DNA from: an uncultured virus (IMG/VR IMGVR_UViG_650377941_000004)
Lineage: Duplodnaviria; Heunggongvirae; Uroviricota; Caudoviricetes
IMG/VR virus record: IMGVR_UViG_650377941_000004
Length of the DNA stretch: 64,000 nucleotides
Reading direction: 5' to 3' (one strand)
Below are positions 16,605-52,555 of the stretch, one piece after another. The notes under the pieces are model-generated. The model had not been told where the DNA came from, ran no database searches, and worked only from the letters and a program-made list of their open reading frames with translations. A program made the position numbers and the translations under genes. The stretch's first letter is position 1, and every line of letters starts with the position of its first letter.

Positions 16605-16811
16605 AAGGGGCTGTAAAATGGCTTATGCCTGATTTTTGATAGAAAACCTGCAAAAACAGGCCCTTAGAATCGAACTTCAGCGATCTTAATTCGTGCCGGA
16701 AAGACACTATAGGGTAGAGAATGAAGCGAATTTATGCGCGTGCAGAATGAAGGGCTTCCGCGAAACCTCCGAACCGCTCAGAAAAACAAACTTGCGAATC
16801 GTCAAAAACAG

Positions 16812-16845
16812 AAATCCCCCGGCGGGTAATTCCGTCGAGGGATTT
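16812..16845. terminator. Bidirectional terminator between convergent operons
   Basis: AAATCCC.CGGCGG...CCGTCG.GGGATTT. Confidence 0.55.
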
Positions 16846-16852
16846 CGTGCGT

Positions 16853-17110
16853 TTATGGTTCGTTTTTCTTGATGATGATTTTCGGAACGGTGGGCGGTTC
16901 GCCGTGCTGCTTCATGTACTCGGCGATTTCGTTCGGCAGGCCAACAGGAAAGCCGTTTTCGTCCAGCGGCCCGTCATACCCGGAAAAATCCACAACATGA
17001 ACCGTGGGCGGTTCCTGCAGGGTGCCGCAATACTGGCCGTCCTCATAGTTTACATCCGTGACACGGTTCCAATAGCCAATGTCGCCGTGCTCGGTCTGGG
17101 CAGCTTCCAT
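16853..17110 (-). CDS. Acidic hypothetical protein (frame extends further 5')
   Basis: Open frame continues to ~17220; start uncertain. Confidence 0.5.
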   Translation of the reverse strand: MEAAQTEHGDIGYWNRVTDVNYEDGQYCGTLQEPPTVHVVDFSGYDGPLDENGFPVGLPNEIAEYMKQHGEPPTVPKIIIKKNEP

Positions 17111-17333
17111 TGCGGCGTGGGCCTGTTCCTCGGTCAGACCGTCGAACGTGGCGCGGGTGCCGTCGGCAAAACTGGCAACCAGACGCCAAGGCGCAAAAAA
17201 TTCGACTTCGTTCGTAAAAATGCCCCCTTTTTTGCAAATTCGTTGTTGGAATTGAACTTTTCGTGATGAAAAAGTCCAATTTCGTTAGTGAAAGTATATC
17301 ACAAGATGCCCCGGCATGGAACCGGGGCGTGGG

Positions 17334-17651
17334 TCATTCTTGTTCCTCTAAGCGCTTGCGAAAGGCTTTGTTCACAGTGTCGTACTGCTTGTTCAGAACG
17401 TCGTTGCCGTGGTCGTACTCGCTTGCCCACGAAAGCAGCTTGTCGGACAGACACCGGCAGGCAGCCGCCATGCAGACGCAATATTCGTTGTGGGTGTTGG
17501 GCAGGGGAAAGCTGCGCAGGATGTACATTTCATCGAAAACGGTATGCCGGACTTCAATGCGCCCGTTCCAGATCGTTATGTTGACGGTGGCCAAGTGGCG
17601 GCAGGAAGTGATCCTATGCAGGACTGAGAGAAAGCGTTCGTTGGTTGTCAT
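17334..17651 (-). CDS. Hypothetical protein
   Basis: AAAGGAG RBS. Confidence 0.7.
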   Translation of the reverse strand: MTTNERFLSVLHRITSCRHLATVNITIWNGRIEVRHTVFDEMYILRSFPLPNTHNEYCVCMAAACRCLSDKLLSWASEYDHGNDVLNKQYDTVNKAFRKRLEEQE

Positions 17652-17682
17652 GGTTCGTTGCTCCTTTTCGTGGTGGTGATGT

Positions 17683-18162
17683 TCAGCGAGCCGGTCGCCG
17701 CTGAAAGGTAAAGCCGGGGTTACGTTCGGTCATTCGTGCAACAACCTTGTCCGCCTGATCTTTCGTGAACCGGGGCGCAAAAACCTTGTTCATGCCGCGC
17801 CTACCGCCCCACGGGTCGCAGAGGGTAAAATGCTGGTCGCTGGGGCCTTTGCAGTAGATGAAGTAGTAAATCGTGCTGGCCGCGGGCATACCGGGGTATC
17901 TGCGGGGCGTGGAACGTGCAGCAACTTCGACAGAGAACACGGACAGCTTCGCGCACCCGAAAAGATGGGTGCAGCAGTTCGTTTTGCGGTCGAGGATTGC
18001 AGCCCCGTCCAGCTCGCGCCCGTCTGTTGCATACTCCTTGACCAGATAGGCGATTCGTGTATGGGCTTCGGCAATGGTGCGAAAACTCATATCTTCGTCG
18101 GTGAAATCGGCAGAAGCGCAGGTAATGACCTGATACCGATGGTTCGGATCGTATTCACGCAT
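17683..18162 (-). CDS. Hypothetical protein
   Basis: AAAGGAG RBS following a repeat copy. Confidence 0.7.
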   Translation of the reverse strand: MREYDPNHRYQVITCASADFTDEDMSFRTIAEAHTRIAYLVKEYATDGRELDGAAILDRKTNCCTHLFGCAKLSVFSVEVAARSTPRRYPGMPAASTIYYFIYCKGPSDQHFTLCDPWGGRRGMNKVFAPRFTKDQADKVVARMTERNPGFTFQRRPAR

Positions 18163-18246
18163 GGTTTGTATCTCCTTTTCGTTTTGTGGTAGCCTTGCGG
18201 CTGGGGCTGGGCTGCTTTGAACGGTGCAACCCGGCTAGAGTATCCG

Positions 18247-19869
18247 TTATTCGCCAAGCTGTAAAAGCGTGGCTTTCGTGGGGATCAGATGCCGTGCAAG
18301 AGTGTCCGTGTAACTCGCTTCGCCCTCGTAGCTGTCCACGATCTTCTGCTCTGCCTTGCTCATGTCGTGGTAGGATTTCTTGCCGTAGGACGGCGGCAAC
18401 CATCCTTTCTTCTGGCTGGCGAACAGGTTGAACGACTTCAAAACGTCGTCATTCGTGAATGTGATGTGGCAAGTGCCTTTTTTGTAGAAAGTGGCGGTGA
18501 AGTAGCGGAACTGCACGTTCTGGCTTTGTCCGCTCTCCTCGGCGGCTTTGAGCGTTGCCCGGAGTTCGTCGCCGTTGTACTTCTTGCCGTTCGTGTCGAG
18601 ATAGTGCAGGGTGCGCTCGATTCGTGACAGGCAGCTCTCAGCGTTCCAACCGGGTTCAAACCGCCCGGAGTAATCACCCCACGCCGAACACCGAAAGATC
18701 ACTTTCTTGCCGACTTTGTACGCTTCGTTCGTGCACCAGCCGTTGTAATAGTGAACGTTCTTCGAGTATTCGGAATTGTAGTGCAGATTTGTCCAGTCGT
18801 TGAAAAGGCCGATTATTTCATCTTCAATGCCGTTCACGATGTTAGCGGACATTTCTTCCCGGATCGTTAGAATGTTGTAGGGGCTGAAATCGTAGTTGGC
18901 AAGCTCGGAGATTCGGTTCTGGTACTCGCACTGCATCGCTTGCGTGAGGTTGTCCCGGATTTGCGGCAGGTCAAAGAGCTTCTTCCAGTACAAGCTGCGC
19001 AAGCTGTGAATCGCTTCGTTATAGCTCTTGTTGAAGTTCAGCACTTCGGTTTCCTTGTCGTCTGCGGTAGCGGCAGAAAACAGGCTCTTGATTCCGTTGT
19101 ACTCTTCGTAAATACGGCGGATGCCCTCGGCGGCGGCATTGTACCGTTCCACCGCGGCGGCGATGGGATCAGCAGACACCAGCGCGGCAAGCTGCGGATC
19201 GGCTTTCATGCGGTCGGTCATTTCGTTGTTGAGCTCCAACCGGATTTTGCTTACTGGCTCCTTGTCGGGAATGTCAACGGAGATCAACGCCACTTCAACG
19301 CGGGCGGCGCGGCGGGCGTTCTTGAAAGCGTCCGGGATGTATTTGATCTGGGCGTTGAGCTCGTTTAGCTTCTGCGCCAGCTCTTTCCGCTCGTTCGTGT
19401 AGGGATTGCGGATCGTTTCGGCGTTGAGCAGACAGCGGATTTTGCCGCCGTCTTTCATGATCTCTAAAGCCTTGAGCAAGTGAGCAGCACCGGCGGAAAA
19501 AGGCGGGTTCATGATGATCGCCGCGTATTTCTTCGCGGGGCGGAACGTGAGAAAATCGTCATGCACCACGCGGAAACCGTCTTTCTTCAGTTTGGCGCGG
19601 AAGTCGCTGGACAGTTCCACACAGTCAAGATCAAACTCTTTCGCCTTGCTCGTGCTGTAACGGTCAAGCTCTCCCGTTTTGGGATCGTGCCGAATATCTG
19701 CGACGGCGTGAATCTGGCGGGCCAGTGCGCCGTCACCGGCAGAGGGTTCAAGGATGGGCTGCGGCAGGTGCTTCCAGCCGTATTTTGTGCTTTGCAGGCT
19801 GTAAGCCATTTCCCACGCGAGATTGTCCGGGGTGGGGTAAAAGTCCCGGCTATCGTTCGGGGTCGTCAT
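18247..19869 (-). CDS. SAM-dependent DNA methyltransferase-like protein with DUF4942-like domain
   Basis: DFYPTP, ILEPSAGDG, IIMNPPF, C-terminal FYKKGTCHITF. Confidence 0.85.
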   Translation of the reverse strand: MTTPNDSRDFYPTPDNLAWEMAYSLQSTKYGWKHLPQPILEPSAGDGALARQIHAVADIRHDPKTGELDRYSTSKAKEFDLDCVELSSDFRAKLKKDGFRVVHDDFLTFRPAKKYAAIIMNPPFSAGAAHLLKALEIMKDGGKIRCLLNAETIRNPYTNERKELAQKLNELNAQIKYIPDAFKNARRAARVEVALISVDIPDKEPVSKIRLELNNEMTDRMKADPQLAALVSADPIAAAVERYNAAAEGIRRIYEEYNGIKSLFSAATADDKETEVLNFNKSYNEAIHSLRSLYWKKLFDLPQIRDNLTQAMQCEYQNRISELANYDFSPYNILTIREEMSANIVNGIEDEIIGLFNDWTNLHYNSEYSKNVHYYNGWCTNEAYKVGKKVIFRCSAWGDYSGRFEPGWNAESCLSRIERTLHYLDTNGKKYNGDELRATLKAAEESGQSQNVQFRYFTATFYKKGTCHITFTNDDVLKSFNLFASQKKGWLPPSYGKKSYHDMSKAEQKIVDSYEGEASYTDTLARHLIPTKATLLQLGE

Positions 19870-19959
19870 GGTTCGTTCTCCTTTTCGTGTTGGATTCACC
19901 CCGGCGGGGTGTGGGATCGGGTCGCTTTTCGTTCGGTGCGGCCCGTCAAGGCATCCGTT

Positions 19960-20484
19960 TCACTGCTGGGCTAAAATCGTGCTCAACCATGTGGAAGAGT
20001 CGGCGCAATCAACCATTTTCGCAAAGTAGCGGCCCGTTACAAGCTGGAACGCATATTGCGTGGTGTAAGTGCCGCTGTACATTTCCCGGCTGCAAAACTC
20101 TTCGACGTTGTTCCGGGTGTGCAAGCCGCGCGGCGGCAATACGTTCAGCGCGTCCTCATAGTCCTGTTTCGTGATCTCGACCATTTCCGGCGCGAGCAGC
20201 TTTTCCCGCTCAAAGTCCAGCCATTCGCCGTAGGTCATGACGGCATAAGAGCGGGCCTTTTCTTGCGCAAGGCGGCTTTCCCAATATCCCCGGTCGCTTT
20301 CGTGGTCGCCGGACTCGATGATCTGGGTGATCCGCTGGATGCTTTCGGCGGTGCTCTTCCGGGCGGCATTCAACACCTCTTCGGCGGTGCGGGGCGTGGG
20401 CCAGCCGGACACGGTGAAAGCGTAGATCTGGACGTTGGGAACATCCACAACAACAAGTTCGTTTTTTTCTTCGTTGGCGGTCAT
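19960..20484 (-). CDS. Hypothetical protein (DUF1419-like)
   Basis: EIT..DY.DALNVLPP...F...E.YSG.YT pattern; AAAGGAG RBS. Confidence 0.55.
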   Translation of the reverse strand: MTANEEKNELVVVDVPNVQIYAFTVSGWPTPRTAEEVLNAARKSTAESIQRITQIIESGDHESDRGYWESRLAQEKARSYAVMTYGEWLDFEREKLLAPEMVEITKQDYEDALNVLPPRGLHTRNNVEEFCSREMYSGTYTTQYAFQLVTGRYFAKMVDCADSSTWLSTILAQQ

Positions 20485-20580
20485 GGTATAATCTCCTTTT
20501 CGTTTTCGTGATTCACCCCGGCGGGGCGTTGGGATCGGGTCGCTTTGTCCGGTGCGGCCCGTCAAGGTATCCGGGGCGGG

Positions 20581-21555
20581 TCATGCGAGAAGATTTGCGG
20601 CGATGCTCTCAAAATCGAGCTGCTGGACGCTGGGGACCATTTCGGGGGCGTTGCGCTTGTGGCTGAGTTCGTCGAGAGCCATTACAAACGCGGCGGCTTC
20701 GCGGTCGCTGCTGATAAAGTCGCAACGATGATTTGTGAACTGCTGGACGATGGAAGAAAATTCGGGGTCGTTCTTGCTCTTCTGGTCAAACGTCTTGACG
20801 GCTTCCCGGTATTCCTTGCTGTCGTTGTCGTCGTGGGTGCGGTAAAAGTTGGAATACCACTTTTCAAAAACCGGCTCTAACTCTTCCATGTCAACGGCAA
20901 CGGCGGCGGGCTTTTTCGTGGTGCGGGACTTCTTCGGGGCGGGTTTCGTGGGCAGCGGCTCAACATGAACCAGTTCGGGAAGTTCGTGGTGCTCTTCAAC
21001 GACGATCGGCGCGGGGCGGGCAGCTTCGGCGGCTGCTTTTGCGGCGGCTGCTTTTGCGGCGGCTTCCTTTGCGGCCTTGCGTTCGGCGGCAAGCTGCTTG
21101 TTGTAAGCGATGATCTCCGCCGTGGACTTGAACCGGGCTTGCGGGGCGGGCTTGCTGCTTTCAACTTGTAAGCAGCTGAAAAGATGGGACTTCGTAGGGT
21201 AGTAATGCGGATCGGGTGCGGCTTCCTTGCCCTCTGCCGCGGCCTTTTCGCGCTGCTCTTTGCTGGGCTTCGTGGTGTACTTCCACAAGTAGCATTCAAG
21301 CAACGCTTTTTCGCCTTTCTTGACGCTCTTGCCCTCTTTCTTCCAATAGTCGAACGTGTGCAGCTCGTCCGCTGCAAACATGATCTCGATATCCGCGGCG
21401 GTGGCGGGCTTTTCGTTGCCGTCCTTGTCAACGATCTTGCAAGATGCAGCAACGGCGGCGATCTCTTCCGGGGTGTGGTGTACGGCGGCAATCTGGTGCA
21501 GCGTGGCCGGGTCAAGACGTTCAGCGGCGGCGCGGATAATCTGTTTATTCGTCAT
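20581..21555 (-). CDS. Protein with ArdC-like N-terminal ssDNA-binding domain
   Basis: TFDYWKKEGKSVKKGEKA...LW...LFS..QV motif; Ala/Lys linker. Confidence 0.65.
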   Translation of the reverse strand: MTNKQIIRAAAERLDPATLHQIAAVHHTPEEIAAVAASCKIVDKDGNEKPATAADIEIMFAADELHTFDYWKKEGKSVKKGEKALLECYLWKYTTKPSKEQREKAAAEGKEAAPDPHYYPTKSHLFSCLQVESSKPAPQARFKSTAEIIAYNKQLAAERKAAKEAAAKAAAAKAAAEAARPAPIVVEEHHELPELVHVEPLPTKPAPKKSRTTKKPAAVAVDMEELEPVFEKWYSNFYRTHDDNDSKEYREAVKTFDQKSKNDPEFSSIVQQFTNHRCDFISSDREAAAFVMALDELSHKRNAPEMVPSVQQLDFESIAANLLA

Positions 21556-21666
21556 GGTAAATACTTCCTTTCGTGTTTCGTTTTGTGGATCGTCCCGGCG
21601 GTGTGCCGGGGGAATGGGATCGGGTCGCTTTCGTTCGGTGCGGCCCGTCAAGGTATCCGGCGGGGT

Positions 21667-22008
21667 TCAATCTTCGGTTTCGTCGCAATCGTGGCAATAC
21701 AGCGCATCAATAACCTTGTCGTCGCTGAAATCGTCCGGGGTTCCGTTGGCATCGACCACAAGATCGATCCGGTCAAAAATCCGCAAGTCGGTTTCGTTGT
21801 CCACGATGAAAAACCAGTCGTCACCGTCCAGCGCGTCGCTGCACCAGACTTCAATCTGGTTTTCGTTGGTGGCGGTCATGCCTTTCACAATGGCCGGGGC
21901 GATATACCGCCCAAAAGGACCGACTTTGTAGGGACAGGCGGCAGCGGCGCGGGGTGCGCTGGACAGCAGCGCGGCGGCAAGTGCGGCGGCGGTCAAAATT
22001 CGTTTCAT
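21667..22008 (-). CDS. Small acidic protein with signal peptide
   Basis: MKRILTAAALAAALL N-terminus; AAGGAG RBS. Confidence 0.7.
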   Translation of the reverse strand: MKRILTAAALAAALLSSAPRAAAACPYKVGPFGRYIAPAIVKGMTATNENQIEVWCSDALDGDDWFFIVDNETDLRIFDRIDLVVDANGTPDDFSDDKVIDALYCHDCDETED

Positions 22009-22121
22009 GGTTCATATCTCCTTTTTGCTTTCGTGGTGTGTGTTCGGCTTTCTCCCGGACGCTTCCGGGGTGGTGGGATCGGGTCGCTTTTCGTGGTGCG
22101 GCCCGTCAAGGTATCCGGGGG

Positions 22122-22511
22122 TCATGCGTAAATTTCATTGAACACTTCGACGGCGTTCCATTGCACCGCCTTTTCACGCTGGGCAGCTTTCGCGGCGTTC
22201 TGGTCGCCGCCGTTGGCTTTCAATGCCATATAGAAAGCATCAACAAGGGCGGCTTTTTGCCGTTCGCGTTCCCGATATGCGGCGATCTGTCCGGCGTCAT
22301 ACACCTTGACCGCCCACGATTCATAGTGAATCGGGGTCAATGTTTCATGGTGCAAGCCCTTGCAGCGGTTCAGAACGGCAACGATCTTACCGGCATCCTC
22401 ATAAGTTGGGGCGGCGATGATGTAGCAAGGGACAGCGGCGCGGGCTTGCTTCTCGATGTTCCACCGGTGACGGGTGGCAATCTGGTTTATTTTCTTGTCG
22501 AATGCGGTCAT
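22122..22511 (-). CDS. Hypothetical protein
   Basis: AAGGAG RBS. Confidence 0.7.
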   Translation of the reverse strand: MTAFDKKINQIATRHRWNIEKQARAAVPCYIIAAPTYEDAGKIVAVLNRCKGLHHETLTPIHYESWAVKVYDAGQIAAYRERERQKAALVDAFYMALKANGGDQNAAKAAQREKAVQWNAVEVFNEIYA

Positions 22512-22606
22512 GTTCTCGATCTCCTTTTGATTTTTTGATTCACCCCGGCGGGGCGGTGGCATAGGGTTGCTTTTGCGGCAGCGGTGCAGCCCTTGAAAGT
22601 GTCCGC

Positions 22607-22635
22607 TTGACTTTACCGGCGAAAGCTGGTAGAAT
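22607..22635 (+). promoter_or_regulatory. Sigma-A-type promoter for an antisense sRNA
   Basis: TTGACT-17-TAGAAT with extended -10 TG. Confidence 0.75.
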
Positions 22636-22638
22636 CAT

Positions 22639-22709
22639 TGCAAGATCGGAACTCGAAAACCTATCTTGCAAGCCTGTCACCCTTTACCGGGTGGCGGGCT
22701 TTTTCTTTT
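22639..22709 (+). ncRNA. Putative antisense sRNA (type I antitoxin-like)
   Basis: TGCAAGAT/ATCTTGCA hairpin + terminator AGCCTGTCACCC/GGGTGGCGGGCT-TTTTCTTTT. Confidence 0.6.
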
Positions 22710-22782
22710 GCCATTCGGCAAGAAGAGCAGCCCAAACTGCCCGCTTGACGGCTTTCGGCAGCTTGAAAAACTCTTTATTCAC
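22684..22782 (-). CDS. 32-aa peptide MNKEFFKLPKAVKRAVWAALLAEWQKKKPATR
   Basis: GAGGTG RBS, GTG start; fills the slot after a repeat copy; below the ORF track size cutoff. Confidence 0.6.
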   Translation of the reverse strand: MNKEFFKLPKAVKRAVWAALLAEWQKKKPATR

Positions 22783-22877
22783 GCTTTTCACCTCTTTTCT
22801 GGTTTGATTCACCCCGGCGGGGTGTTGGGATCGGGTCGCTTTCAGCGGTGCGGCCCGTCAAGGTGTCCGGCGGCGAG

Positions 22878-23087
22878 TTAGAACCCCTGATTTTTCATCT
22901 GCTGGAGAATGTTCTGGTAAATCGCTTCCCACATTTCAGCATTCCGCACGGCGGATTCATGCGCCATCTTGCCGGACTTTTCATCACGGGCTTTTTCTTT
23001 CCAGTCGCAAACCACGAAACCGACACTTGCAAGAACGGTTCTCATGTCATCAGTGTCAAGGGTGATTGTCATTTTTTCAGCGTCCAT
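22878..23087 (-). CDS. Hypothetical protein (first gene of the leftward operon)
   Basis: GAGG RBS, promoter upstream. Confidence 0.65.
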   Translation of the reverse strand: MDAEKMTITLDTDDMRTVLASVGFVVCDWKEKARDEKSGKMAHESAVRNAEMWEAIYQNILQQMKNQGF

Positions 23088-23134
23088 AATGCAACCTCTT
23101 TTCTGCTTTGCGGTGTTTCGCTTGCCGTGGCTAT

Positions 23135-23212
23135 ATCATAGCATGAATCATGCAATGCGTCAAGCATGAATCATGCAATTTTACGAAATGCACAAAAAAG
23201 CATGATTCATTC
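23135..23212 (-). promoter_or_regulatory. Leftward operon promoter with GCATGAATCATGC operators
   Basis: TTGACG-17-TATGAT (23135-23163); palindromes at 23141-23153, 23164-23176 and degenerate 23200-23212. Confidence 0.75.
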
Positions 23213-23284
23213 CGTCAATTTTTGCATGGTGCATTCCGGGAAAATTTGATATAATGGGGACAGGCAGAAAGAGAGGTGACAAAA

Positions 23285-23503
23285 ATGCCGCTCACAGACA
23301 AGAAAAGAATAACGAACGACCGCTATTTATCAAAGTTTGCGACAAAATCAATTAGAATCCCGAAAGAAATTGAAGAGGATTTGAACACCGCCGCCGCCCA
23401 CGCCGGGGAAAGCGTGGCGGGGTATATCGTGAACGCCACGCGGGAAAGAATGGCCCGCGATGGATTCCAGCCGCCCGACGACAGCAGCACCGGCGGCGGG
23501 TGA
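23285..23503 (+). CDS. Ribbon-helix-helix (Arc/CopG-like) regulator
   Basis: KSIRIPKE...L..AA..AGESVAGYI..A; TG-A-TATAAT promoter at 23247-23255. Confidence 0.7.
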   Translation: MPLTDKKRITNDRYLSKFATKSIRIPKEIEEDLNTAAAHAGESVAGYIVNATRERMARDGFQPPDDSSTGGG

Positions 23504-24537
23504 TTCCAGCCGCCCGAAAATTTGACGCGAAAAAAGAGGTAGACACGGCCCGCGCCGCGCCTACCTCTTTTTTGTTGCCTGTTTTCCGTGGGGCGTTTTC
23601 CGTGGGCGGCTTTTCCGTGGATCACACCCCGGCCCCGCCGCCGGTGTGAAGATCGCACCCGCCCGCCGCTGCTGCTGTCTGGACACGCCGCCGCGCCGAT
23701 GATCCGCGCCGATGATCCACGCCGCCGATCTTCACCCCGCGCCGCCCCGATGGGGACGACAGGCAGCGCACCGGCCCCGNNNNNNNNNNNNNNNNNNNNN
23801 NNNNNNNNNNNNNNNNNNNNNNNNNNNNNNNNNNNNNNNNNNNNNNNNNNNNNNNNNNNNNNNNNNNNNNNNNNNNNNNNNNNNNNNNNNNNNNNNNNNN
23901 NNNNNNNNNNNNNNNNNNNNNNNNNNNNNNNNNNNNNNNNNNNNNNNNNNNNNNNNNNNNNNNNNNNNNNNNNNNNNNNNNNNNNNNNNNNNNNNNNNNN
24001 NNNNNNNNNNNNNNNNNNNNNNNNNNNNNNNNNNNNNNNNNNNNNNNNNNNNNNNNNNNNNNNNNNNNNNNNNNNNNNNNNNNNNNNNNNNNNNNNNNNN
24101 NNNNNNNNNNNNNNNNNNNNNNNNNNNNNNNNNNNNNNNNNNNNNNNNNNNNNNNNNNNNNNNNNNNNNNNNNNNNNNNNNNNNNNNNNNNNNNNNNNNN
24201 NNNNNNNNNNNNNNNNNNNCGCCCGCCGCCCGGCGCCGGGCCGATGACCACGGCCCGCCCGCCCCCGCGCCCGTAGGTACTGGGAGCGGCGTTTCAATCC
24301 TTTACGGGTCCGAAAGCCCGAAAATTTTCTAGGTATAAACGGATTTTTGCCCTTCCCCAGAAGGGGGTCTGAAAAAATTTAGGGGGATTTTTTGAAGAAA
24401 ATTTTCAAAATGATGTATCGTGATGCCTTTTTCCTGCTATAATCGGTACAGTGATAGGTGCGAAGCTCCATGACATTCCGTCGTGGGGCTTTTTCTTTTG
24501 CGTGTATTTTGGAAACGGGGTGCAGGAGTGATGCCGG

Positions 24538-25299
24538 ATGCCGAAGCGGAACGACAAGCGCGACACCGCCAAGGCTGAGTACATCAAGCGGCGGCGGTCG
24601 GGCGAGAAAGTAAATCTCAAAGACCTTGCCGAAAAGCTGGGCGTGACATACGGAACCGTCCGCAACTGGAAACGCATTGACCAATGGGACGATGCGATGG
24701 AGCGCAAGCGCGGGGGACAGCCCGGAAACAAAAACAGCCGGGGCAAGAGGAATGCCAAGGGCAATCCCGGCGGCGGTGCGCCGAACGGAAACACCAACGC
24801 AGAGAAGGACGGTGCATATAGCACGGTTCACCTTGAACGTTTGAGCCAAGAGGAACGGGACTGGCTGGATCAAATGCCGACCGGTGCAAACGAGAACAAC
24901 ATTTATGAGTTGAAGCTGCTTCGGATTCAGCAGCGGCACATCATGGAACGGATCGCAGAGTATGAAAGCTGCGACCCGGAAAAGCTGTTCACTGCATCCA
25001 TCACCGATATGCGAAAACCGGGAAAGGACAAAGACGGGAAGCAGGCGGACGGAGCTGTGCAGAAGATGGTCATGGATAACAAGGACAGTGCCTTTGTTCG
25101 AGTGACCCAGCTGCGGGAGGCCCTGAACAAGGTCTCCGGCAGAATTATTTCCCTGACCACACAAATCCGTCAGCAGGAAGAATTTGAAAAACGGTACGCT
25201 CTGGAACTGGAACGCCTTGACATTGCAAAGACGCGGGCGACCGGTGAGGTGGATGTAGACCCGGAGGGAGGGACAGAGGATGAAACTGTACACGACTAA
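24538..25299 (+). CDS. Terminase small subunit-related protein (N-terminal HTH)
   Basis: LAEKLGVTYGTVRNWKRIDQW, GGQPGNKN, GAPNGNTNAEKDG. Confidence 0.8.
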   Translation: MPKRNDKRDTAKAEYIKRRRSGEKVNLKDLAEKLGVTYGTVRNWKRIDQWDDAMERKRGGQPGNKNSRGKRNAKGNPGGGAPNGNTNAEKDGAYSTVHLERLSQEERDWLDQMPTGANENNIYELKLLRIQQRHIMERIAEYESCDPEKLFTASITDMRKPGKDKDGKQADGAVQKMVMDNKDSAFVRVTQLREALNKVSGRIISLTTQIRQQEEFEKRYALELERLDIAKTRATGEVDVDPEGGTEDETVHD

Positions 25300-45292: not shown

Positions 45293-46416
45293 GTTGGGAA
45301 AAATCTAACTACACCGCCGCCGGTGCCGCCCTGCTGTCGGAATCTCTCTCCGGTGGTGCGCTGGTAATCACCCGCGCTGTGAGCGGCACCGGCACGGCAG
45401 ACGCAGACCTTTCGGAGGAAACCGGGGTAAGCGGCGAAACACATGACCTGAAATTGCTGGACATCGAAACTGTTGAAAGCAACGGCGAAACTGCCCGGCG
45501 GGTAAAAATCCAGATCACCGGTGCGGATGAAACGTACATCATGCATCAGGTGGGCGTTTACGGCAGGCTGAACGACGATGCAGAAACACTCCTGTTTATT
45601 ATGCAGGATGCACGCGGAGTGGAGGTCCCGTCCACGAAAGTGAACGGCGATTTTGAAATTGAGCTGTCGGCGCTGCTTGCTGTGTCGAACAAGGCCAATA
45701 TCAGCATTACCGTTGACCCGCAGATGCAGGCTCTCGCAAAGCTGGTCAAGGCCGAGATCGAGAAGCACAACGCCGACGCCAGTGCCCATGCGGCGACTAT
45801 CACGGCAGCGGTCAGCGCAGCCGTGAAGAACCTGTCTGAATCCGGGGAAATCCTGAACGAAGAACAGGTAAAGGCTCTTATCAAGGAGCAGGTGGACGGC
45901 GGCACAGGCGGCGGCTACTATGGCTCCTACAAACTCACCCTTGCAGCTGACGAGTGGAAGCCCGCCCGCAGCGAGGATGATTACGAAAACGCTGGCGGTA
46001 TGGATTACTACCAGTGCATTTATGATGCAGAACTGTCGGACAGCACCAGCGAGCTTGTACCCGTTGGCGTTGTATCTCCCGGCAGCTTCTATACTACGAC
46101 CAAAGCGGGCGTCCTGAACGGGTGCGAAACGCATGATGGTTTCATCAGATTTTTCGCTCAGCGCATCCCGGAAGCAGATATTCAGGCGACCGTAACCCTG
46201 TTCGGGAAAGGAGATGGTTCGGGTGAAACCGGTAGCGTAAGCATCGGTCAGGGCTTGAAGCGCGACGCAAGCGGCGCTATTGCCGTCCGCATCGGCGAAG
46301 GTCTTGACTTCGACAGCGCAAACGCGCTGACCGTCCGCAAAGAAACCGTTATGACGAGTGAAGACCTGCTCGACGAGGAAGAAACGCAGCAGGAAATCGT
46401 TGATATGCTGAAATAA
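45289..46416 (+). CDS. Tail fiber/collar protein
   Basis: T.AG..L...ITRA.SG.G collar-like N-terminus; HN.D.SAH motif. Confidence 0.75.
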   Translation: MSWEKSNYTAAGAALLSESLSGGALVITRAVSGTGTADADLSEETGVSGETHDLKLLDIETVESNGETARRVKIQITGADETYIMHQVGVYGRLNDDAETLLFIMQDARGVEVPSTKVNGDFEIELSALLAVSNKANISITVDPQMQALAKLVKAEIEKHNADASAHAATITAAVSAAVKNLSESGEILNEEQVKALIKEQVDGGTGGGYYGSYKLTLAADEWKPARSEDDYENAGGMDYYQCIYDAELSDSTSELVPVGVVSPGSFYTTTKAGVLNGCETHDGFIRFFAQRIPEADIQATVTLFGKGDGSGETGSVSIGQGLKRDASGAIAVRIGEGLDFDSANALTVRKETVMTSEDLLDEEETQQEIVDMLK

Positions 46417-46435
46417 TTTTTAGGAGGACACTATT

Positions 46436-47305
46436 ATGTCTAAGCAGATTTCTACCAAGACCACCATCCGCAACCTGACCGCTGAGATCAAGAAGACTTT
46501 CGTCAAGAAGGACGCCTTTACCCCTGTGCAGGCCGCAGCCAACGCTGCTATCAAGTCTCTTGGCGTTGACGGCAACACCGTGAACTTCTACACCTCTACC
46601 GACAAGAGCGGCACTGCTGCTTTCTCCGTTGACTTCCCCTCTGAGCTGTTCCTCGACCAGACCAAGACCACCTTCGTGGCCAAGTTCAAGTTCGATGCTG
46701 CGACCTACCCCGGCGCTACCGACCCCAAGCTGGACGGCAAGCCCGTCATGGTGCTGGCCGTCAAGGGCGAGAATCCTGACTCCTGCACCTACTCTTTCCT
46801 GAGCATGGCTGCGCTGGTGGATACCTACAAGGCTAAGGCCGTCGGCAAGGATGCTTCCACCACCGTTACCATCGCTGGCTATGAGGTGGATGTCAAGGTC
46901 AATGTTTCCGCTGCTGCAGGCAACGCTCTGACCCTGAAGGACGACGGTCTGTATGTTCCCACCCCTGAGGAAGTGGACATTTCCGGCAAGGCCGATAAGG
47001 TCACTGGTGCTACCACCGGCAACCTCGCTGCGCTGGACGGCGAGGGCAACCTGACCGACAGCGGCAAGAAGCCTGCCGACTTTGTGGCCGCCGAGGCTGG
47101 CAAGCGCCTGATGACCGATGCCGAGGGCGAAAAGCTGGCCGGTGTCTCTGAGGGTGCCACCAAGACCGCAGCCAGCTCCACCAACGGCAATGTGAACATT
47201 GACGGCAAGGAAGTCGTCGTGTACACCGAGCCGGAGAATGTTCTGCACGACGAGGATGTGGAGGACTTCTCCGCAGAGGAGATCGCCGCTCTGCTGGCTG
47301 ACTAA
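46436..47305 (+). CDS. Tail-associated structural protein
   Basis: DISGKADK...GNLAALD.EGNLTDSG fiber-type motif; strong codon bias. Confidence 0.7.
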   Translation: MSKQISTKTTIRNLTAEIKKTFVKKDAFTPVQAAANAAIKSLGVDGNTVNFYTSTDKSGTAAFSVDFPSELFLDQTKTTFVAKFKFDAATYPGATDPKLDGKPVMVLAVKGENPDSCTYSFLSMAALVDTYKAKAVGKDASTTVTIAGYEVDVKVNVSAAAGNALTLKDDGLYVPTPEEVDISGKADKVTGATTGNLAALDGEGNLTDSGKKPADFVAAEAGKRLMTDAEGEKLAGVSEGATKTAASSTNGNVNIDGKEVVVYTEPENVLHDEDVEDFSAEEIAALLAD

Positions 47306-47325
47306 GACATGAGGAGGTAAGCTCT

Positions 47326-47775
47326 ATGGCAAAAGCGAAGATCAAAACGCTTTTGGGCACAGGGCTTGCCGCGCTTTGCAGCCACATCAAGCAGTGCAAC
47401 ACCGCAATCGGAGACCTTTCCGAAGCAACGGCAAACGGATTCGAGGAAACCGATGACATCCTGCACGAAAAGCAGGATGTCACGGCTGCGGTGTCTTTTA
47501 CGATTCCGGTCGATGGCTGGGGCGAGGATGATTCCTCCCCCGGCTATTTTTATTGTGACATCCCCATTGCGGGCCTGTTGGCTACCGACATTGTGGATGT
47601 TACGGTACTGCCGGAATTTTACGATGTGGCGGGTGCGGTGGGCTTTATTGCGACCGAAAGCCTCGAAGGAAAGCTGCGGCTGAGGGCCGCCAAAGCTCCG
47701 ACCGAGAAAATTTCTGCACAGTATCACATTACAAGCACCGTGAAATACACGGATGCACAGGAAGGGGGAACCTAA
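47326..47775 (+). CDS. Hypothetical tail-associated protein
   Basis: GGAGG RBS; resembles the C-terminal domain of 45289-46416. Confidence 0.7.
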   Translation: MAKAKIKTLLGTGLAALCSHIKQCNTAIGDLSEATANGFEETDDILHEKQDVTAAVSFTIPVDGWGEDDSSPGYFYCDIPIAGLLATDIVDVTVLPEFYDVAGAVGFIATESLEGKLRLRAAKAPTEKISAQYHITSTVKYTDAQEGGT

Positions 47776-48162
47776 ATGGCATACGGTTCTTTTAACGCAG
47801 GCCCCGGCAAGGCGCCGGATGAAGATGTTGTCCGCACTGACCAGATCGGCATTCCGGGCGGCATTGCCACGCTGGATGCAGACGGCCACCTGACCGAGAG
47901 CCAGCGGTGGGAAGTGGACGGCTACAAAAAGGCCGAGACCGACCAGCGCATCAGCGCAGCCGTGGACGCTCACAACGGTGCGGAGAACGCCCACAGCGAC
48001 ATCCGTGCCAGTGTGGCAGCTATGAACGCCAGCATCAAGGCCATTGAGCTGAAGTTCGGCACGAACGTCACGAAAAACCCGTTTTCTGCCACGTTCGGCA
48101 GTCTGGACGGCCTGACCGTGACCGGCGCGTGGAATGCCGAGCAGGCAAGGGTGGAGTTCTGA
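47776..48162 (+). CDS. Tail fiber-related protein
   Basis: GIATLDADG, HNGAENAHSDIR. Confidence 0.7.
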   Translation: MAYGSFNAGPGKAPDEDVVRTDQIGIPGGIATLDADGHLTESQRWEVDGYKKAETDQRISAAVDAHNGAENAHSDIRASVAAMNASIKAIELKFGTNVTKNPFSATFGSLDGLTVTGAWNAEQARVEF

Positions 48163-48164
48163 CG

Positions 48165-48740
48165 ATGGCTGAAACATTCAAGGTCGGCGCGAATGCGCGG
48201 GAGCTGCTGCGGTACACCCAGAGGGCAACCCGCATTGTCACCGACGACATCAGCCGGAGCGATGCCCGGAAGATCATCCAGAAAGTCGCAGCGCTCGAAG
48301 ATGTGCGCGACATCCAGAAGGTGTGTGGCACTGCCGTCCATGCACTCGACACACGGGACAGGGAGGGCTTTTCCAAAAGCACTTTCCGTCTGTACGGTGA
48401 GGGCATCCGGCTGACTGCCCGGCAAATCCTGCTGGATGCACACGCGGCAAACAACGTCAATTTCCAGACCGACTACGACAAGCGCGTTGAGAAGATCGGC
48501 GCAGTTGTGGACGGCTGCTCTCTGCTGCTGGAATACCTGACCATCTGCACGGAGGAAGGTATCATCAGTGCGAAGAAAGCCGGTATCTGGACAAAGAAGG
48601 TCACGGACGTAAAATACCCGGCGATGAAGTGGCTCACGTCGGAACGCGGACGTGCCGAAAAACTCCGGGCAGAAGCGGAACGGAAACGGCTGACCGAACA
48701 GGCTGCCGCCCTGAAAGCCGTCCTTTACCCGGAACCGTAA
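48165..48740 (+). CDS. avd: DGR accessory variability determinant (Avd-like)
   Basis: Helical basic protein immediately 5' of TR; FSKSTFRLYG..IR, W.K.V..VK. Confidence 0.75.
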   Translation: MAETFKVGANARELLRYTQRATRIVTDDISRSDARKIIQKVAALEDVRDIQKVCGTAVHALDTRDREGFSKSTFRLYGEGIRLTARQILLDAHAANNVNFQTDYDKRVEKIGAVVDGCSLLLEYLTICTEEGIISAKKAGIWTKKVTDVKYPAMKWLTSERGRAEKLRAEAERKRLTEQAAALKAVLYPEP

Positions 48741-48791
48741 ACGCACAGCGGGCAACCGCTTTGCATAAAGGGTGCGGTTTGTTTGTCTGAC

Positions 48792-48911
48792 GCTGCCATT
48801 TGGTGGCTGCGCTCTCCGAACACCAACAATAACAACAACGTCTGGAACGTCAACACCGATGGCTCCAACAACAACAACTGGTACAACAACTCCTATGGTG
48901 TTCGCCCCGCT
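48792..48911 (+). repeat. DGR template repeat (TR)
   Basis: Intergenic, 14 AAY codons in the VR frame; matches VR1 and VR2 except at adenines. Confidence 0.95.
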
Positions 48912-49081
48912 CTGATGGAACCGTGTGACGAGTAGGCATAAGCTGAAAGCAGTGCGCCCATCAAAGGAAACCGCATCCTGTCGCTTGCCGATGCAGGCAA
49001 GTGATAAATACATCCCGCTGAGGTGGGCCATCCCTGCCGGATGCAGCCCACTACCGTAACGCGAACCAGCGGAGGGCAATT

Positions 49082-50311
49082 TTGACATACGAAGAACTGT
49101 GCAGCTTCGAGGTGCTTTACAAAGCCTACCTTGAAGCCCGGAAGGGAAAGCGCAGTAAAAGCAAAACAATCGAGTACGAGGCGCAGGCGCTGGCCTGCAC
49201 GGAAAAGCTGTCCCGCAAGCTGGCTGTGCGTGATGTACGCCAGCCGGGCGGCGACATCCGGCAGCAGATATGCTATGTGCCAAGTAAGTTTGAGGTCTTT
49301 GCCGTCTATGAGCCGAAGCGCCGCATGGTACACGCCCCCGCATTTGTGGACAAGGTGGTGCTGCACGCTCTGGTCGATAACATCCTGTATGATGCCCTGA
49401 CAAGGAGCTTTATCCGGGACAGCCACGCCAGCCAGACCGGCAAAGGCACAGACGACGGCCTGATGCGCCTGAAAACCCACATGGTGGACTATTACCGCCG
49501 TGAGGGCCACGGCGCGGACGGCTGGGTGCTGAAAGGCGACGTGCGGCATTTCTTCGCCAGCATCGACCACCGGAAGCTAAAACGCAAGCTCAAAGCCGTG
49601 CTGGACAAGCGCGGCGTTGACCCGCGTGTCTATGAGCTGCTTTGCATCTACATCGACGTGATGGAGGACGGCTTGCCGCTGGGCTACCAGACGAGCCAGC
49701 TTTTCGCCCTCATGTTTTTGGACGAGTTCGACCACATCATCAAAGAAAAGTACCGCATCAAATACTATGGCCGATACATGGATGATTTCTACATCATCTG
49801 TTCGGACAAGAAGAAATTGCAGTGCATTCTCCGGGATGTTCGGGCGCTCATGGACAGTTACGACCTTGAACTGAACCAGAAAACCGCCATTTTCCCGCTG
49901 CGGAACGGTATTGATTTTCTGGGATTCCATAGCTACCTGACCGACACCGGCGCGGTCATCCAAAAGCTGCGCCGGGATAGCTCCAAGCGGATGAAGAACA
50001 AGATCAGATATTGGGAGACGGCATACCCCGCAGGCGAAGTGACCAAGCAGGAAATCCTGCGGAGCTTTGATGCGTGGGATGCCCATGCCGCCCATGGTGA
50101 TACTTACTCTTTACGCCGCAAGTACGCTGACCGGCTCGAAAAATTGCTTGACTGTAAAATCCCTATCCATCGAAAAATCAACTCGAACAAACTCGCGCGT
50201 GACAGACGGCGGGCGAGGCAATGCCGCTGCATCTACAAGAAGCAGCACAAAGCCCTGTCCCTCTCTGTATCGCAGAACACGCGGCCCGCGGAGATCATGC
50301 CGTGGGCCTGA
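49082..50311 (+). CDS. DGR reverse transcriptase
   Basis: AY..ARKGK, EPKRR, DKVVLHAL, LKGDVRHFF.SI, GLPLGYQTSQ, RYMDDF, IDFLGF. Confidence 0.97.
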   Translation: MTYEELCSFEVLYKAYLEARKGKRSKSKTIEYEAQALACTEKLSRKLAVRDVRQPGGDIRQQICYVPSKFEVFAVYEPKRRMVHAPAFVDKVVLHALVDNILYDALTRSFIRDSHASQTGKGTDDGLMRLKTHMVDYYRREGHGADGWVLKGDVRHFFASIDHRKLKRKLKAVLDKRGVDPRVYELLCIYIDVMEDGLPLGYQTSQLFALMFLDEFDHIIKEKYRIKYYGRYMDDFYIICSDKKKLQCILRDVRALMDSYDLELNQKTAIFPLRNGIDFLGFHSYLTDTGAVIQKLRRDSSKRMKNKIRYWETAYPAGEVTKQEILRSFDAWDAHAAHGDTYSLRRKYADRLEKLLDCKIPIHRKINSNKLARDRRRARQCRCIYKKQHKALSLSVSQNTRPAEIMPWA

Positions 50312-50331
50312 ACGAAAACAAGGAGGTAACA

Positions 50332-51591
50332 ATGGCAAACGTAAAACTGGGCACGAAAGCCGTTGGCAGCATTGTCAAAATCAAAGTCAACGGCGCGTCC
50401 AAAGATTTTATTGTTGTGCAGCAGGGCAACCCGAACACCAGCACCTATGATTCGAGTTGCAATGGAACGTGGCTGCTGATGAAGGACATCTACACCACGT
50501 CCACGTTCGGCAACAATAACTCCTACAAGGATTCCAGCATCCACACATACCTGAACGGAACGTTCTACAACCTCATCGACAGCAACATCCGGGCGGCTAT
50601 TAAGCAGGTGAAAATCCCGTACCAGAACGGCACTGGTTCCGGCGGCAGCCTTGCCACCGGCTCCAACGGCCTGAGCACAAAAGTGTTCCTGCTGTCTGGT
50701 TATGAGGTTGGTTGGACGACCAGCGACAACGGCTATTTCCCGAAGGACGGTGTGAGGCTGGCATACTTTGGCAACAGCTCTAGCGGTAACAGCAAGCGTA
50801 TTGCATACAATGGCAGCTACGCTGCCGTTTGGTGGCTGCGCTCTCCGTACACCAACGGTAGCAACAGCGTCTGGGGCGTCAACACCGATGGCTCCGGCTA
50901 CGGCTACTGGTGCGGCAACTCCTATGGTGTTCGCCCCGCTTTCATTCTTCCCTCTACACTCGTGGTCTCTGACGATGGCACGGTCAGTGTCAACACTGCA
51001 CCTACCGTCAGCACGGACGGCGCAGCTCTGGGGCGGAAGAACGCGGCCTTTGCGTGGAAGTACACCGTCAGGGATGCCGACGGCGACACCTTGACCGTCA
51101 CCGAAAAGCTGGACGGCAAGACCACCAAGACCCGCACCGGCGTTGCCAGCGGCACGGCCCTGACCTTTGAGCAGACGGCCAGCGCTGCCGGATTCCAGAA
51201 AATCCTGAACGGCAACCACACCATCACCGTTGAGGTGAGCGACGGCAAGGAAACCGTCAGCACGTCCGCGACCTTTACCAAGGCCGTCCACGCCGCAAGC
51301 GTGACGCTGGCTGAACCGTTGGCCGTTGAGGGCGACATTACCGTTGCCGTGCTTCAGGTGACCGGCTCCATCCCCGATGATGCGAAGTTCAAAGCCGAAG
51401 TGACCAACAACGCACTCGACAGCTCCCCGGTCTGGCAGGATGCCACGACCGAGGTAAAAAAAGGCGTGAACATCGTCTTTGAGAATAAGACCGCCACCAA
51501 CGGCGCGGCGTTTAACTTCCGCGTCAGCGTGGAGCGCGGCGAATCCGGCGAGGGCGGCTACATCGAAGCCGTCTCCGGCGCATTCCAGTAA
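50332..51591 (+). CDS. DGR target protein 1 (DUF6273/CLec-like domain + beta-rich C-terminal region), likely adhesin/receptor-binding protein
   Basis: KVFLLS..E, WWLRSP...GVRPA; contains VR1; GGAGG RBS. Confidence 0.9.
   Translation: MANVKLGTKAVGSIVKIKVNGASKDFIVVQQGNPNTSTYDSSCNGTWLLMKDIYTTSTFGNNNSYKDSSIHTYLNGTFYNLIDSNIRAAIKQVKIPYQNGTGSGGSLATGSNGLSTKVFLLSGYEVGWTTSDNGYFPKDGVRLAYFGNSSSGNSKRIAYNGSYAAVWWLRSPYTNGSNSVWGVNTDGSGYGYWCGNSYGVRPAFILPSTLVVSDDGTVSVNTAPTVSTDGAALGRKNAAFAWKYTVRDADGDTLTVTEKLDGKTTKTRTGVASGTALTFEQTASAAGFQKILNGNHTITVEVSDGKETVSTSATFTKAVHAASVTLAEPLAVEGDITVAVLQVTGSIPDDAKFKAEVTNNALDSSPVWQDATTEVKKGVNIVFENKTATNGAAFNFRVSVERGESGEGGYIEAVSGAFQ
50821..50940 (+). repeat. DGR variable region VR1
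   Basis: 120 nt vs TR: 17 mismatches, all at TR adenines. Confidence 0.95.
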
Positions 51592-51605
51592 GGAGGACAG
51601 TCACC

Positions 51606-51809
51606 ATGATTCAGTGGAAAAAGGACAATCTGCCCACCCGGCAGGAGAAGGAAGCCGCAGCCAAGAAGCAGCAGGAGCACGAACAGTTGCCCGACCGTGT
51701 GGCTGAAATGGAAGATGCCCTGTGCGAACAGGACGCGGCCAACGAGAAGCGCTTGACCGACATCGAAACCGCGCTGTGTGAGCTGGACGCAGCGCTGAAC
51801 AAGGAATAA
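51606..51809 (+). CDS. Small coiled-coil phage protein
   Basis: GGAGG RBS. Confidence 0.7.
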   Translation: MIQWKKDNLPTRQEKEAAAKKQQEHEQLPDRVAEMEDALCEQDAANEKRLTDIETALCELDAALNKE

Positions 51810-51821
51810 GGAGGTATCACC

Positions 51822-51989
51822 ATGAACATTATCTGGGCAAACCGCCTGATTGCAGGCACTAAGACTTGGGCAGAGATGCCCGCATCCCGCCGCGCCGGTG
51901 TCAAGAAAGTTCTGGCCGAGCGCATAAACAAGGGCGAGATCACCGCAGACGACTACAAGGACATCACGGGCGAAGACTATGCAGCATAA
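51822..51989 (+). CDS. XkdX-like small protein
   Basis: KGEITADDYKDITGEDY motif. Confidence 0.7.
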   Translation: MNIIWANRLIAGTKTWAEMPASRRAGVKKVLAERINKGEITADDYKDITGEDYAA

Positions 51990-52141
51990 AAGCTGGCCCG
52001 ATCTGTGCGAAAGCCTGCTGACCCGGCTGGAAACCAGTGGTGCGGACACGACCGCAGAGCGCGGCGAATTTGCCGTGCTGGTGGCTGAGTGCGGGTCGAG
52101 CGGCTGCAAAATGGCATTGAGCCAGAAAGGAGAAAACGACA

Positions 52142-52555
52142 ATGGCGATTAAAGCCTATTCACTGGCAAAGGATGGTAACAAGAAACTGTCCGCAAATTT
52201 TGCCGTGAAAGAGTTTCGCTGCAAGGATGGGACTGACCCCATCTTTATTGATGATGTGTTGGTGAAACTGTTGCAGAACATCCGGAATCACTTTGGAAAG
52301 GCTGTTACGATCACCAGCGCATATCGCACTGCCGCCCATAACAAGGCGGTCAAGGGCGCAACGTACAGTCAGCATTGCTACGGTATGGCGGCAGATATTC
52401 GGATTCAGGGCGTGGACGTGGAAACGCTCGCGACCTACGCCGAAACGCTGCTGAAAAACACCGGCGGCATCGGACGTTACCCGGTAAAAACTGGTCGTCC
52501 TGCTGGCTGGGTACACATCGACACCCGTGCGGTAAAGAGCCGTTGGGTGGGTTAA
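52142..52555 (+). CDS. Endolysin, peptidase M15 family
   Basis: F..KEF.CKDG, ITSAYR...HN..V.GA..SQH.YG.AADI, WVHIDTR. Confidence 0.9.
   Translation: MAIKAYSLAKDGNKKLSANFAVKEFRCKDGTDPIFIDDVLVKLLQNIRNHFGKAVTITSAYRTAAHNKAVKGATYSQHCYGMAADIRIQGVDVETLATYAETLLKNTGGIGRYPVKTGRPAGWVHIDTRAVKSRWVG

Follow-up and report, generated by a model that had tools for sequence, protein, structure and literature searches.

Elements of the orphan RNA family RAGATH-5 punctuate a Faecalibacterium prophage operon and share their intergenic slots with self-cleaving ribozymes in related arrays

Seven RAGATH-5 elements in one leftward operon

The window analysed here, a 64,000-nucleotide (nt) stretch of DNA recorded in IMG/VR as IMGVR_UViG_650377941_000004 (Caudoviricetes), is a Faecalibacterium temperate prophage. 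It carries a large serine integrase gene (1-1659) and a gene that is repressor-like; terminase genes begin at 24538, and genes for capsid and tail are present as well. Its leftward operon, which is accessory and probably early, carries seven structured intergenic repeats, and these are members of RAGATH-5 (Rfam RF02685), a catalogued orphan RNA family. Each copy consists of a core followed by a second hairpin, hereafter hairpin 2. The operon reads as follows, in the direction of its transcription (scores are against RF02685; protein lengths are in amino acids, aa).

23135..23163, - strand: promoter-like site of the leftward operon (TTGACG, 17 nt, TATGAT; 10/12 consensus matches, TG before the -10; a consensus match only)
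22878..23087, - strand: gene A, 69 aa, the operon's first gene (orf79 of phage Lelie), without Pfam or PHROG family
22810..22870, - strand: RAGATH-5 copy 1 (core 22870-22826, hairpin 2 22824-22810; 68.7 bits)
22684..22782, - strand: gene B, 32 aa, starting with GTG where relatives have ATG, read from sequence
22541..22606, - strand: RAGATH-5 copy 2, divergent (core 22606-22557, hairpin 2 22555-22541; 53.8 bits)
22122..22511, - strand: gene C, 129 aa, function unknown (PHROG phrog_34109)
22054..22118, - strand: RAGATH-5 copy 3 (core 22118-22074, hairpin 2 22069-22054; 66.6 bits)
21667..22008, - strand: gene D, 113 aa, signal-peptide-like N-terminus (PHROG phrog_32350)
21594..21660, - strand: RAGATH-5 copy 4 (core 21660-21615, hairpin 2 21610-21594; 67.4 bits)
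20581..21555, - strand: gene E, 324 aa, weakly ArdC N-terminal-like (PF08401, 22.0 bits against a cut-off of 22.6; PHROG phrog_34979)
20514..20574, - strand: RAGATH-5 copy 5 (core 20574-20530, hairpin 2 20528-20514; 69.9 bits)
19960..20484, - strand: gene F, 174 aa, function unknown (Pfam scan)
19897..19958, - strand: RAGATH-5 copy 6 (core 19958-19912, hairpin 2 19911-19897; 62.4 bits)
18247..19869, - strand: gene G, 540 aa, N6-adenine methyltransferase-like with a DUF4942 domain (PF13708 at 2.1e-51)
18192..18247, - strand: RAGATH-5 copy 7, divergent (core 18247-18202, hairpin 2 18201-18192, GCCGCAAGGC; 60.7 bits)
17683..18162, - strand: gene H, 159 aa, then a 31-nt gap without element
16805..16852, - strand: hairpin and U-run after the last leftward gene (16853-17110), read from sequence; probable end of the operon

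The assignment to RAGATH-5 comes from a scan of the whole window against Rfam at gathering scores, the cut-off for RF02685 being 50 bits. All seven repeats match at 53.8-69.9 bits over model positions 1-53 on the - strand (22870-22819, 22606-22550, 22118-22067, 21660-21608, 20574-20523, 19958-19905 and 18247-18195), and no other family, nor any ribozyme, reaches threshold in the window. When the limit was relaxed to E<=10 over 17600-23400, only sub-threshold noise was returned and no ribozyme model (hammerhead, twister, twister-sister, pistol, hatchet, HDV-like) was matched. R1, a covariance model built here from the copies themselves, found no copy beyond the seven in the 64 kb at E<=1. In the Rfam alignments the bulged hairpin, the loop ACCG...AAA and the unpaired flanks CGGAYACC and CCCCA are all present, and the invariant words picked out in the earlier note on this DNA coincide with invariant positions of the model. 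That note did not recognise the repeats as a named family and suggested an Rfam search; the search has now been run, and the known-family match in 7/7 copies refutes the claim of an unnamed family and removes its novelty. The Rfam model covers the bulged hairpin only, its end falling within the 5' arm of hairpin 2. What we add to it is the covariation of a pseudoknot and its triples, hairpin 2, the placement relative to stop codons, and the exchange with ribozymes. The searchable literature yielded no mention of RAGATH-5 or RF02685, and hence no function; the mentions of RAGATH that were located concern RAGATH-18 only, and none of them pairs RAGATH with hatchet and twister-sister.

Much of what had been described from the letters alone holds up. 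The repeats are indeed intergenic and on a single strand, between 18195 and 22870. The two 17-mers said to be common to five copies occur exactly five times each, with any match in 0/100 shuffles of the window. The compensatory stem changes are real (GGGCUGC/GCAACCC at 22606 and GGGUUGC/GCAGCCC at 18247), and hairpin 2 pairs in 7/7 copies although it comes in four sequences. From the stop codon to model position 1, the gaps of copies 1-7 measure 7, 77, 3, 6, 6, 1 and -1 nt, which bears out the statement that six of the seven begin 0-8 nt past a stop: copy 7 overlaps the stop of gene G by one base, and copy 2 sits 77 nt past the stop of gene B. The next start codon follows the invariant CCCA by 39-65 nt in six copies and by about 43 nt in copy 1 (GTG at 22782).

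A probable pseudoknot with two base-triple-like layers

Covariation ties the 5' flank of the element to its hairpin. Our alignment A3 (128 distinct rows) was made with a model that held no pairs between flank and stem, and mutual information was computed over 247 distinct extended strings, each made of 15 flank bases and the core (205 distinct cores). Two pairs outside the stem stood at or near the top, each linking a position of the 5' flank with one in the stem's 3' arm. In A3, columns 9 and 43 are C-G in 90 rows, U-A in 38 and unpaired in none; columns 10 and 44 are U-A in 80, C-G in 46, U-G in one and otherwise in one. No shuffle in 500 gave flank-stem covariation as high, and controls with a slid partner reached at most 64.8% pairing. 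Both pairs run in parallel register and column 43 also pairs with column 23, which argues for pyrimidine-motif major-groove triples rather than an ordinary helix. For layer 9/43/23 there are 89 rows with (C,G,C) and 34 with (U,A,U). Column 21, the nominal partner of column 44, is unpaired with it in 81/128 rows, so that column 10 appears as the real partner of 44. The four combinations of the two triple layers all occur, two or more states are found in 26/42 loci, and the window alone has three; the covariation is therefore not one inherited change.

The stem covaries as well, with 79 cells changed on both sides among the 128 sequences against 28 in shuffles (0/500 as high). A further interaction can form between the 5' CGG and a CCG in the loop: pair 2-29 is C-G in 122 rows, G-C in two, U-A in one, U-G in one and otherwise in two, and the next outward pair is complementary in 58/84 cases against 33% in shifted controls. 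Taken together, the 5' flank and the hairpin most likely form an H-type pseudoknot with two base-triple-like layers, loop 1 running in the deep groove of stem 2 and loop 3 holding the invariant AAA. The flank CGGAYRCCYU covaries with both stem and loop and is not plain single strand, a point missed in the earlier description; the broader claim made there, of a covarying structured element read on the transcribed strand at gene boundaries, is sustained by the stem and flank covariation and by the placement of the copies. About 25 bases are near-invariant across the 205 distinct cores, including the unpaired CGGA, GCACC, AAAGC and CCCA.

A.C mismatches recur at certain stem positions. They are found at columns 13-51, 16-48 and 21-44 in 45, 49 and 80 of the 128 rows; G.U pairs number only 22 altogether, and the layer 10/44/21 is never (U,A,U). 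These mismatches may reflect protonated A+.C wobbles, or a rule that allows only A and C among unpaired bases.

Similar architecture is known from the triple-bearing H-type pseudoknots of telomerase RNA, SAM-II, preQ1-II and guanidine-III riboswitches and luteovirus frameshift signals. Shared with these are a loop 1 lying in the deep groove of stem 2, U.A-U and C+.G-C layers, and an A-rich loop 3. RAGATH-5 nonetheless shows no sequence or model similarity to them (E<=10), and differs in its context and its repetition.

Shuffled arrays in which RAGATH-5 and ribozymes trade places

A pattern scan of viral contigs gave at least 132 matching stretches. Within the genus, sampled at one genome per species, 9/91 genomes had matches, eight of them above the cut-off, and the above-cut-off matches listed form one cluster of 3-7 same-strand copies per genome; across the family, at one genome per genus, the count was 3/151. 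With a looser pattern, species genomes of Faecalibacterium, Gemmiger, Subdoligranulum, Oscillibacter, Flavonifractor, Acutalibacter and other Oscillospiraceae were matched, usually several times per contig, together with single matches in unrelated phyla that the profile mostly did not support (31 loci without profile match). Wherever a locus holds two or more copies these are co-oriented (144/144 loci), at a median spacing of 699 nt. With starts chosen by ribosome-binding site, the cargo of the arrays falls into 57 or more families, almost none of which has a Pfam family. The family of gene E is the commonest, at 80 loci, and no constant partner protein was found across the 57 cargo families.

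Placement could be counted in 253 de-replicated copies with enough flank. The stop codon of an open reading frame (ORF) lies -1 to 47 nt upstream of 243/253 copies, with a mode of 6-7 nt; counted once per upstream gene cluster, 55/68 fall at 0-12 nt from the stop. Downstream, a start codon follows CCCA by 34-71 nt in 242/253 copies. The first paired base of hairpin 2 comes 0-5 nt past CCCA in 245/253. Hairpin 2 is variable and GC-rich (102 different strings, median z-score -2.7 against shuffles) and is present in most Faecalibacterium-phage copies. It stays with the downstream gene where the upstream gene differs. Its folding in sense and antisense gave no discrimination between the strands. 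Beside this, a partial resemblance is seen further down our operon, at 17295-17336 (-), where the stop of the gene at 17334-17651 is directly followed by CCCA and a GC-rich hairpin (GCCCCGG...CCGGGGC) without a pseudoknot core. It may be a remnant of the element or a weak terminator.

The arrays of related genomes are not made of RAGATH-5 alone. The family reportedly stems from a comparative search published by Weinberg and colleagues in 2015 for RNAs near twister- and hammerhead-associated genes, and the RAGATH name refers to an occurrence beside twister or hammerhead ribozymes or beside genes found with them. No ribozyme was found in the window. Among 20 related genome loci scanned against Rfam, we counted 68 RAGATH-5 elements, 13 strong twister-sister and four type II hammerhead ribozymes, all on the same strand, with RAGATH-5 and ribozymes together in 13/20 loci. 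The ribozymes start 1-9 nt past a stop in 11/17 cases; in 16/17, the next start comes 15-33 nt beyond their end. One upstream gene family is followed by RAGATH-5 in three contexts, by twister-sister in four and by hammerhead in four. For five downstream gene clusters, RAGATH-5 stands ahead of the gene in one genome and a ribozyme in another. By position, then, RAGATH-5 (together with hairpin 2, if the copy has one) and self-cleaving RNAs can stand in for each other. Mixed same-strand arrays of all three RNAs were noted in the Oscillospiraceae loci L166, L173, L144 and others, and locus L175 holds a DUF3800-VIII RNA match on the opposite strand (106-173).

Gene content between the repeats differs among relatives, as a comparison proposed in the earlier note reveals. 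The 330 elements connect 69 upstream and 80 downstream gene clusters in 113 types of junction, with two or more partners for 16/80 downstream and 17/69 upstream clusters, and homology breaks at the edges of the repeat core, starting at the stop codon and ending at CCCA.

The operon of the window is 100% identical over 6501 nt to positions 45926-52426 of Faecalibacterium phage Lelie, and 88.4% identical to FP_Toutatis across 43% of its length. Toutatis has six RAGATH-5 copies at the gathering score and a seventh just under it. In the two phage records the genes of the operon are all called hypothetical, except for one "primase" in Toutatis, and RNA features are absent among those listed. According to its published account, Lelie is an active phage with cohesive ends, spontaneously induced in the lysogen Faecalibacterium sp. 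L2-61, and its record begins at the predicted cos (PMC11792537), which puts the operon within about 1 kb of the right end of the genome. The hotspot of Toutatisvirus described in a published preprint is another locus, between tail genes and integrase. Recognisable cargo in the operon is limited to the DUF4942 adenine-methyltransferase-like gene G and the weakly ArdC-N-like gene E. Searches with tblastn found gene E in Lelie and Toutatis only, and gene G in distant phages only.

Upstream of gene A, the operon promoter is bracketed by repeated TTGCATGATTCATGC words: 23178-23164 stands immediately ahead of the -35, 23155-23141 falls between the -35 and the -10, and a partial copy, 23210-23200, is farther upstream. 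A divergent gene of 75 aa follows at 23276-23503 (+), weakly ribbon-helix-helix antitoxin-like (PF08681, E 0.0048). The arrangement looks like a repressor-controlled early promoter. Two runs of N interrupt the window, at 23780-24219 (440 bases) and 57157-57441 (285 bases); the first separates the promoter region of the operon from the small terminase gene, near the position of the cos end of the Lelie record.

The 77-nt gap past gene B has features of its own on the + strand. A promoter-like site at 22607-22635 (TTGACT, 17 nt, TAGAAT, with TG) is followed on its 3' side by a strong intrinsic terminator at 22670-22711 (13-pair stem and T-run), and both are antisense to the 3' end of gene B. The segment 22607-22711 is weakly ctRNA_p42d-like (23.8 bits, E 0.089, sub-threshold). 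We regard it as a candidate antisense RNA of about 65 nt, which possibly belongs to a type I toxin-antitoxin-like pair.

A proposed boundary module and the readings that compete with it

Because RAGATH-5 occupies the slots that twister-sister and hammerhead ribozymes take in sister arrays, we propose with moderate confidence that it is an intergenic boundary module doing those ribozymes' job, that is, processing or insulating a long message. The first four bases of the element, NCGG, would pair with the CCGN of the hairpin loop, and the next bases of the 5' flank would line the deep groove of a stem of 10-11 layers, making two pyrimidine-purine-pyrimidine triple layers. The loop would be closed by the invariant AAA, and the stem followed by the invariant CCCA and, in Faecalibacterium phages, by a GC hairpin of variable sequence that travels with the downstream gene. 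The module spans the distance from the stop codon of one gene to the ribosome-binding site of the next, and would cut the long message, or mark it for cutting, into gene-length mRNAs with structured and protected ends. The upstream piece would then finish with the pseudoknot, and the downstream one would start with hairpin 2. Our guess for the cut site is in or just past CCCA; self-cutting and cutting by a nuclease are both conceivable, as is a mere shielding of ends. Cleavage at the elements is something that we infer by analogy with the ribozymes.

Precedent for such an arrangement exists in the hammerhead-flanked operons of prophages. Perreault et al. (2011; PMC3088659) report prophages in which several hammerheads flank single genes, among them ardA, and infer that long phage transcripts are processed into gene-length mRNAs. 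Those operons likewise have same-strand structured RNAs around single genes or short variable blocks, with anti-restriction-type cargo (PMC3088659), but RAGATH-5 has no match to any ribozyme model and its self-cleavage is only hypothetical.

A second parallel lies in the RNase III sites of phage T7, which are also conserved structured intercistronic sites, in an early operon that starts with an anti-restriction gene, and whose cutting leaves protective hairpins at the ends of mRNAs. The T7 sites, however, are long irregular duplexes cut by the host RNase III, whereas RAGATH-5 is a compact pseudoknot with a stem of 10-11 layers. Of the roles that the earlier note grouped under a functional RNA, processing is the best supported.

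Several observations weigh against a boundary module with this fold. The describers of the RAGATH candidates are said to have reported self-cleavage for twister-sister, pistol and hatchet only, and RAGATH-5 may not cut itself under standard conditions. No element precedes gene A, the first of the operon, and the last two junctions between genes are likewise empty. Hairpin 2 is not essential, since some copies in other lineages lack it. The pseudoknot stem is mostly invariant, with both-sided change at pair 2-29 in only 3/128 rows, and our shuffle tests overstate significance because related sequences are not independent. Lastly, nearly every mismatch in the gene-strand stem is A.C, and in 124/128 cores it is the reverse complement that folds better, which taken alone would favour the opposite strand.

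A variant that we think unlikely is that RAGATH-5 is a self-cleaving ribozyme in its own right, either of an unrecognised class or in need of a condition missed earlier, with the pseudoknot and its two triples as the fold and a cut at its edge; the mRNA of each gene would then finish in the knot and that of the next would open with a hairpin. The missing condition could be low pH, which the C+.G-C and A+.C layers would call for, or the bases just upstream, or hairpin 2.

It is a little less probable that the element acts as a docking site, one in each shuffled cassette, to which a protein of phage or host binds without cleavage; the protein could be a processive antiterminator, for example, or could regulate translation or decay. 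Some 25 near-invariant bases across 205 cores and at least 57 cargo families would suit one conserved partner, and the operon has its own operator-flanked promoter. Yet no conserved gene for an RNA-binding protein or antiterminator accompanies the arrays, whose cargo is mostly unknown and variable, and a docking site does not explain the ribozymes in the same slots. Known antitermination sites, moreover, occur once per operon and not at every junction.

The position of the pseudoknot some 6-8 nt past the stop would place it at the entry channel of a terminating ribosome, where it could tune termination, block sliding or cause recoding. The peak of the spacing at 6-7 nt, or 7-9 nt to the C of CGGA when counted by gene cluster, speaks for this, since frameshift and read-through pseudoknots have an equal spacer and triplex-bearing H-type knots are classic stimulators. 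Ribozymes are just as close to the stop, though (1-9 nt, 11/17), so that the spacing belongs to the array and not to the RAGATH-5 fold. The frame relative to the stop varies (7, 3, 6, 6, 1, -1), which leaves no conserved extension, and a ribosome reading past the stop of gene A would run into another stop after 11 codons. In the upstream contexts viewed we noticed no slippery sequence in common, although no search was aimed at one. We find a role directed at the ribosome improbable.

Still a little less credible is the idea that the repeats serve chiefly at the level of DNA, as a recombination platform that swaps single-gene cassettes in the manner of integron attC sites or the CUP repeats of IncN plasmids. 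The likeness lies in co-oriented cassettes, a structured repeat right past the stop and shuffled content, and the mosaic junctions (113 types), with homology that runs from stop codon to CCCA, speak for it. Of the recombination platform put forward in the earlier note, the differing gene content among relatives holds; nothing points to site-specific recombination or to excised circles. The only recombinase seen is the large serine integrase some 20 kb away, with no integron-type tyrosine recombinase near the array: an IntI tyrosine recombinase with its attI site was not found in scans by Pfam of 40 ORFs and by PHROG of 30, a part of those in the window. Reading of the seven copies on both strands showed no GTTRRRY/RYYYAAC core sites, a pattern scan not having been run, and the nearest word to an attC core is GTTGGGA, in 2/7 copies. 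Unlike attC sites, which have both, RAGATH-5 arrays are without IntI-type integrase and core sites, covary as a pseudoknot on the RNA strand and can be replaced by ribozymes, whereas pure recombination sites would need no triple-covarying pseudoknot and would not be ribozyme-replaceable. The IncN CUP repeats are much longer DNA repeats that carry promoters. Ordinary homologous recombination at a 45-nt repeat accounts for the mosaicism. On the boundary-module reading, the conserved core doubles as a homology patch through which phages have exchanged single-gene modules, and we regard this as a by-product.

We give very little credence to a ligand-sensing riboswitch with the architecture of SAM-II, preQ1-II or guanidine-III. 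Those aptamers share with RAGATH-5 the H-type pseudoknot, the major-groove triples and the abundance of invariant bases. The Rfam models of SAM-II, preQ1-II and guanidine-III have no match in 17600-23400 even at E<=10, however, and there is no expression platform, the ribosome-binding site in the copies read lying 20-35 nt beyond hairpin 2 and not being sequestered. Seven copies per operon before unrelated genes are unlike any riboswitch, and a riboswitch does not explain the ribozyme interchange.

Least probable of all is that the opposite strand is the working one, as antisense RNA or as single-stranded DNA. The hairpin of the reverse complement is the more stable in the great majority of cores noted above because A.C mismatches turn into G.U pairs, but nearly every unpaired base on the gene strand is A or C, and this by itself flatters the complement in silico; the copies are co-oriented with the genes in 144/144 multi-copy loci and locked to stop codons and ribosome-binding sites, and the strong + strand terminator at 22670-22711 would halt long antisense transcripts. 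Two further candidates were dropped: mimicry of RNase P substrates or tRNA (a stem, then NCCA), under which the pseudoknot itself would be cut, leaving the conserved 5' flank without an explanation, and mimicry of CRISPR repeats or of type III antitoxins, as the repeats are separated by genes and a cognate nuclease is not known.

As to function RAGATH-5 remains an orphan, and its seven copies in Lelie, a cultured and spontaneously induced phage, offer a direct experimental handle. The covariation provides a three-dimensional model that can be tested, namely a pseudoknot carrying two layers of triples, and a sharp functional prediction comes from the way in which twister-sister and hammerhead ribozymes exchange with the element slot for slot. 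If the boundary-module reading is true, it would bear on why phages punctuate their accessory operons, some with anti-restriction-type genes, with self-processing RNAs, and would also show how such operons shuffle single genes.

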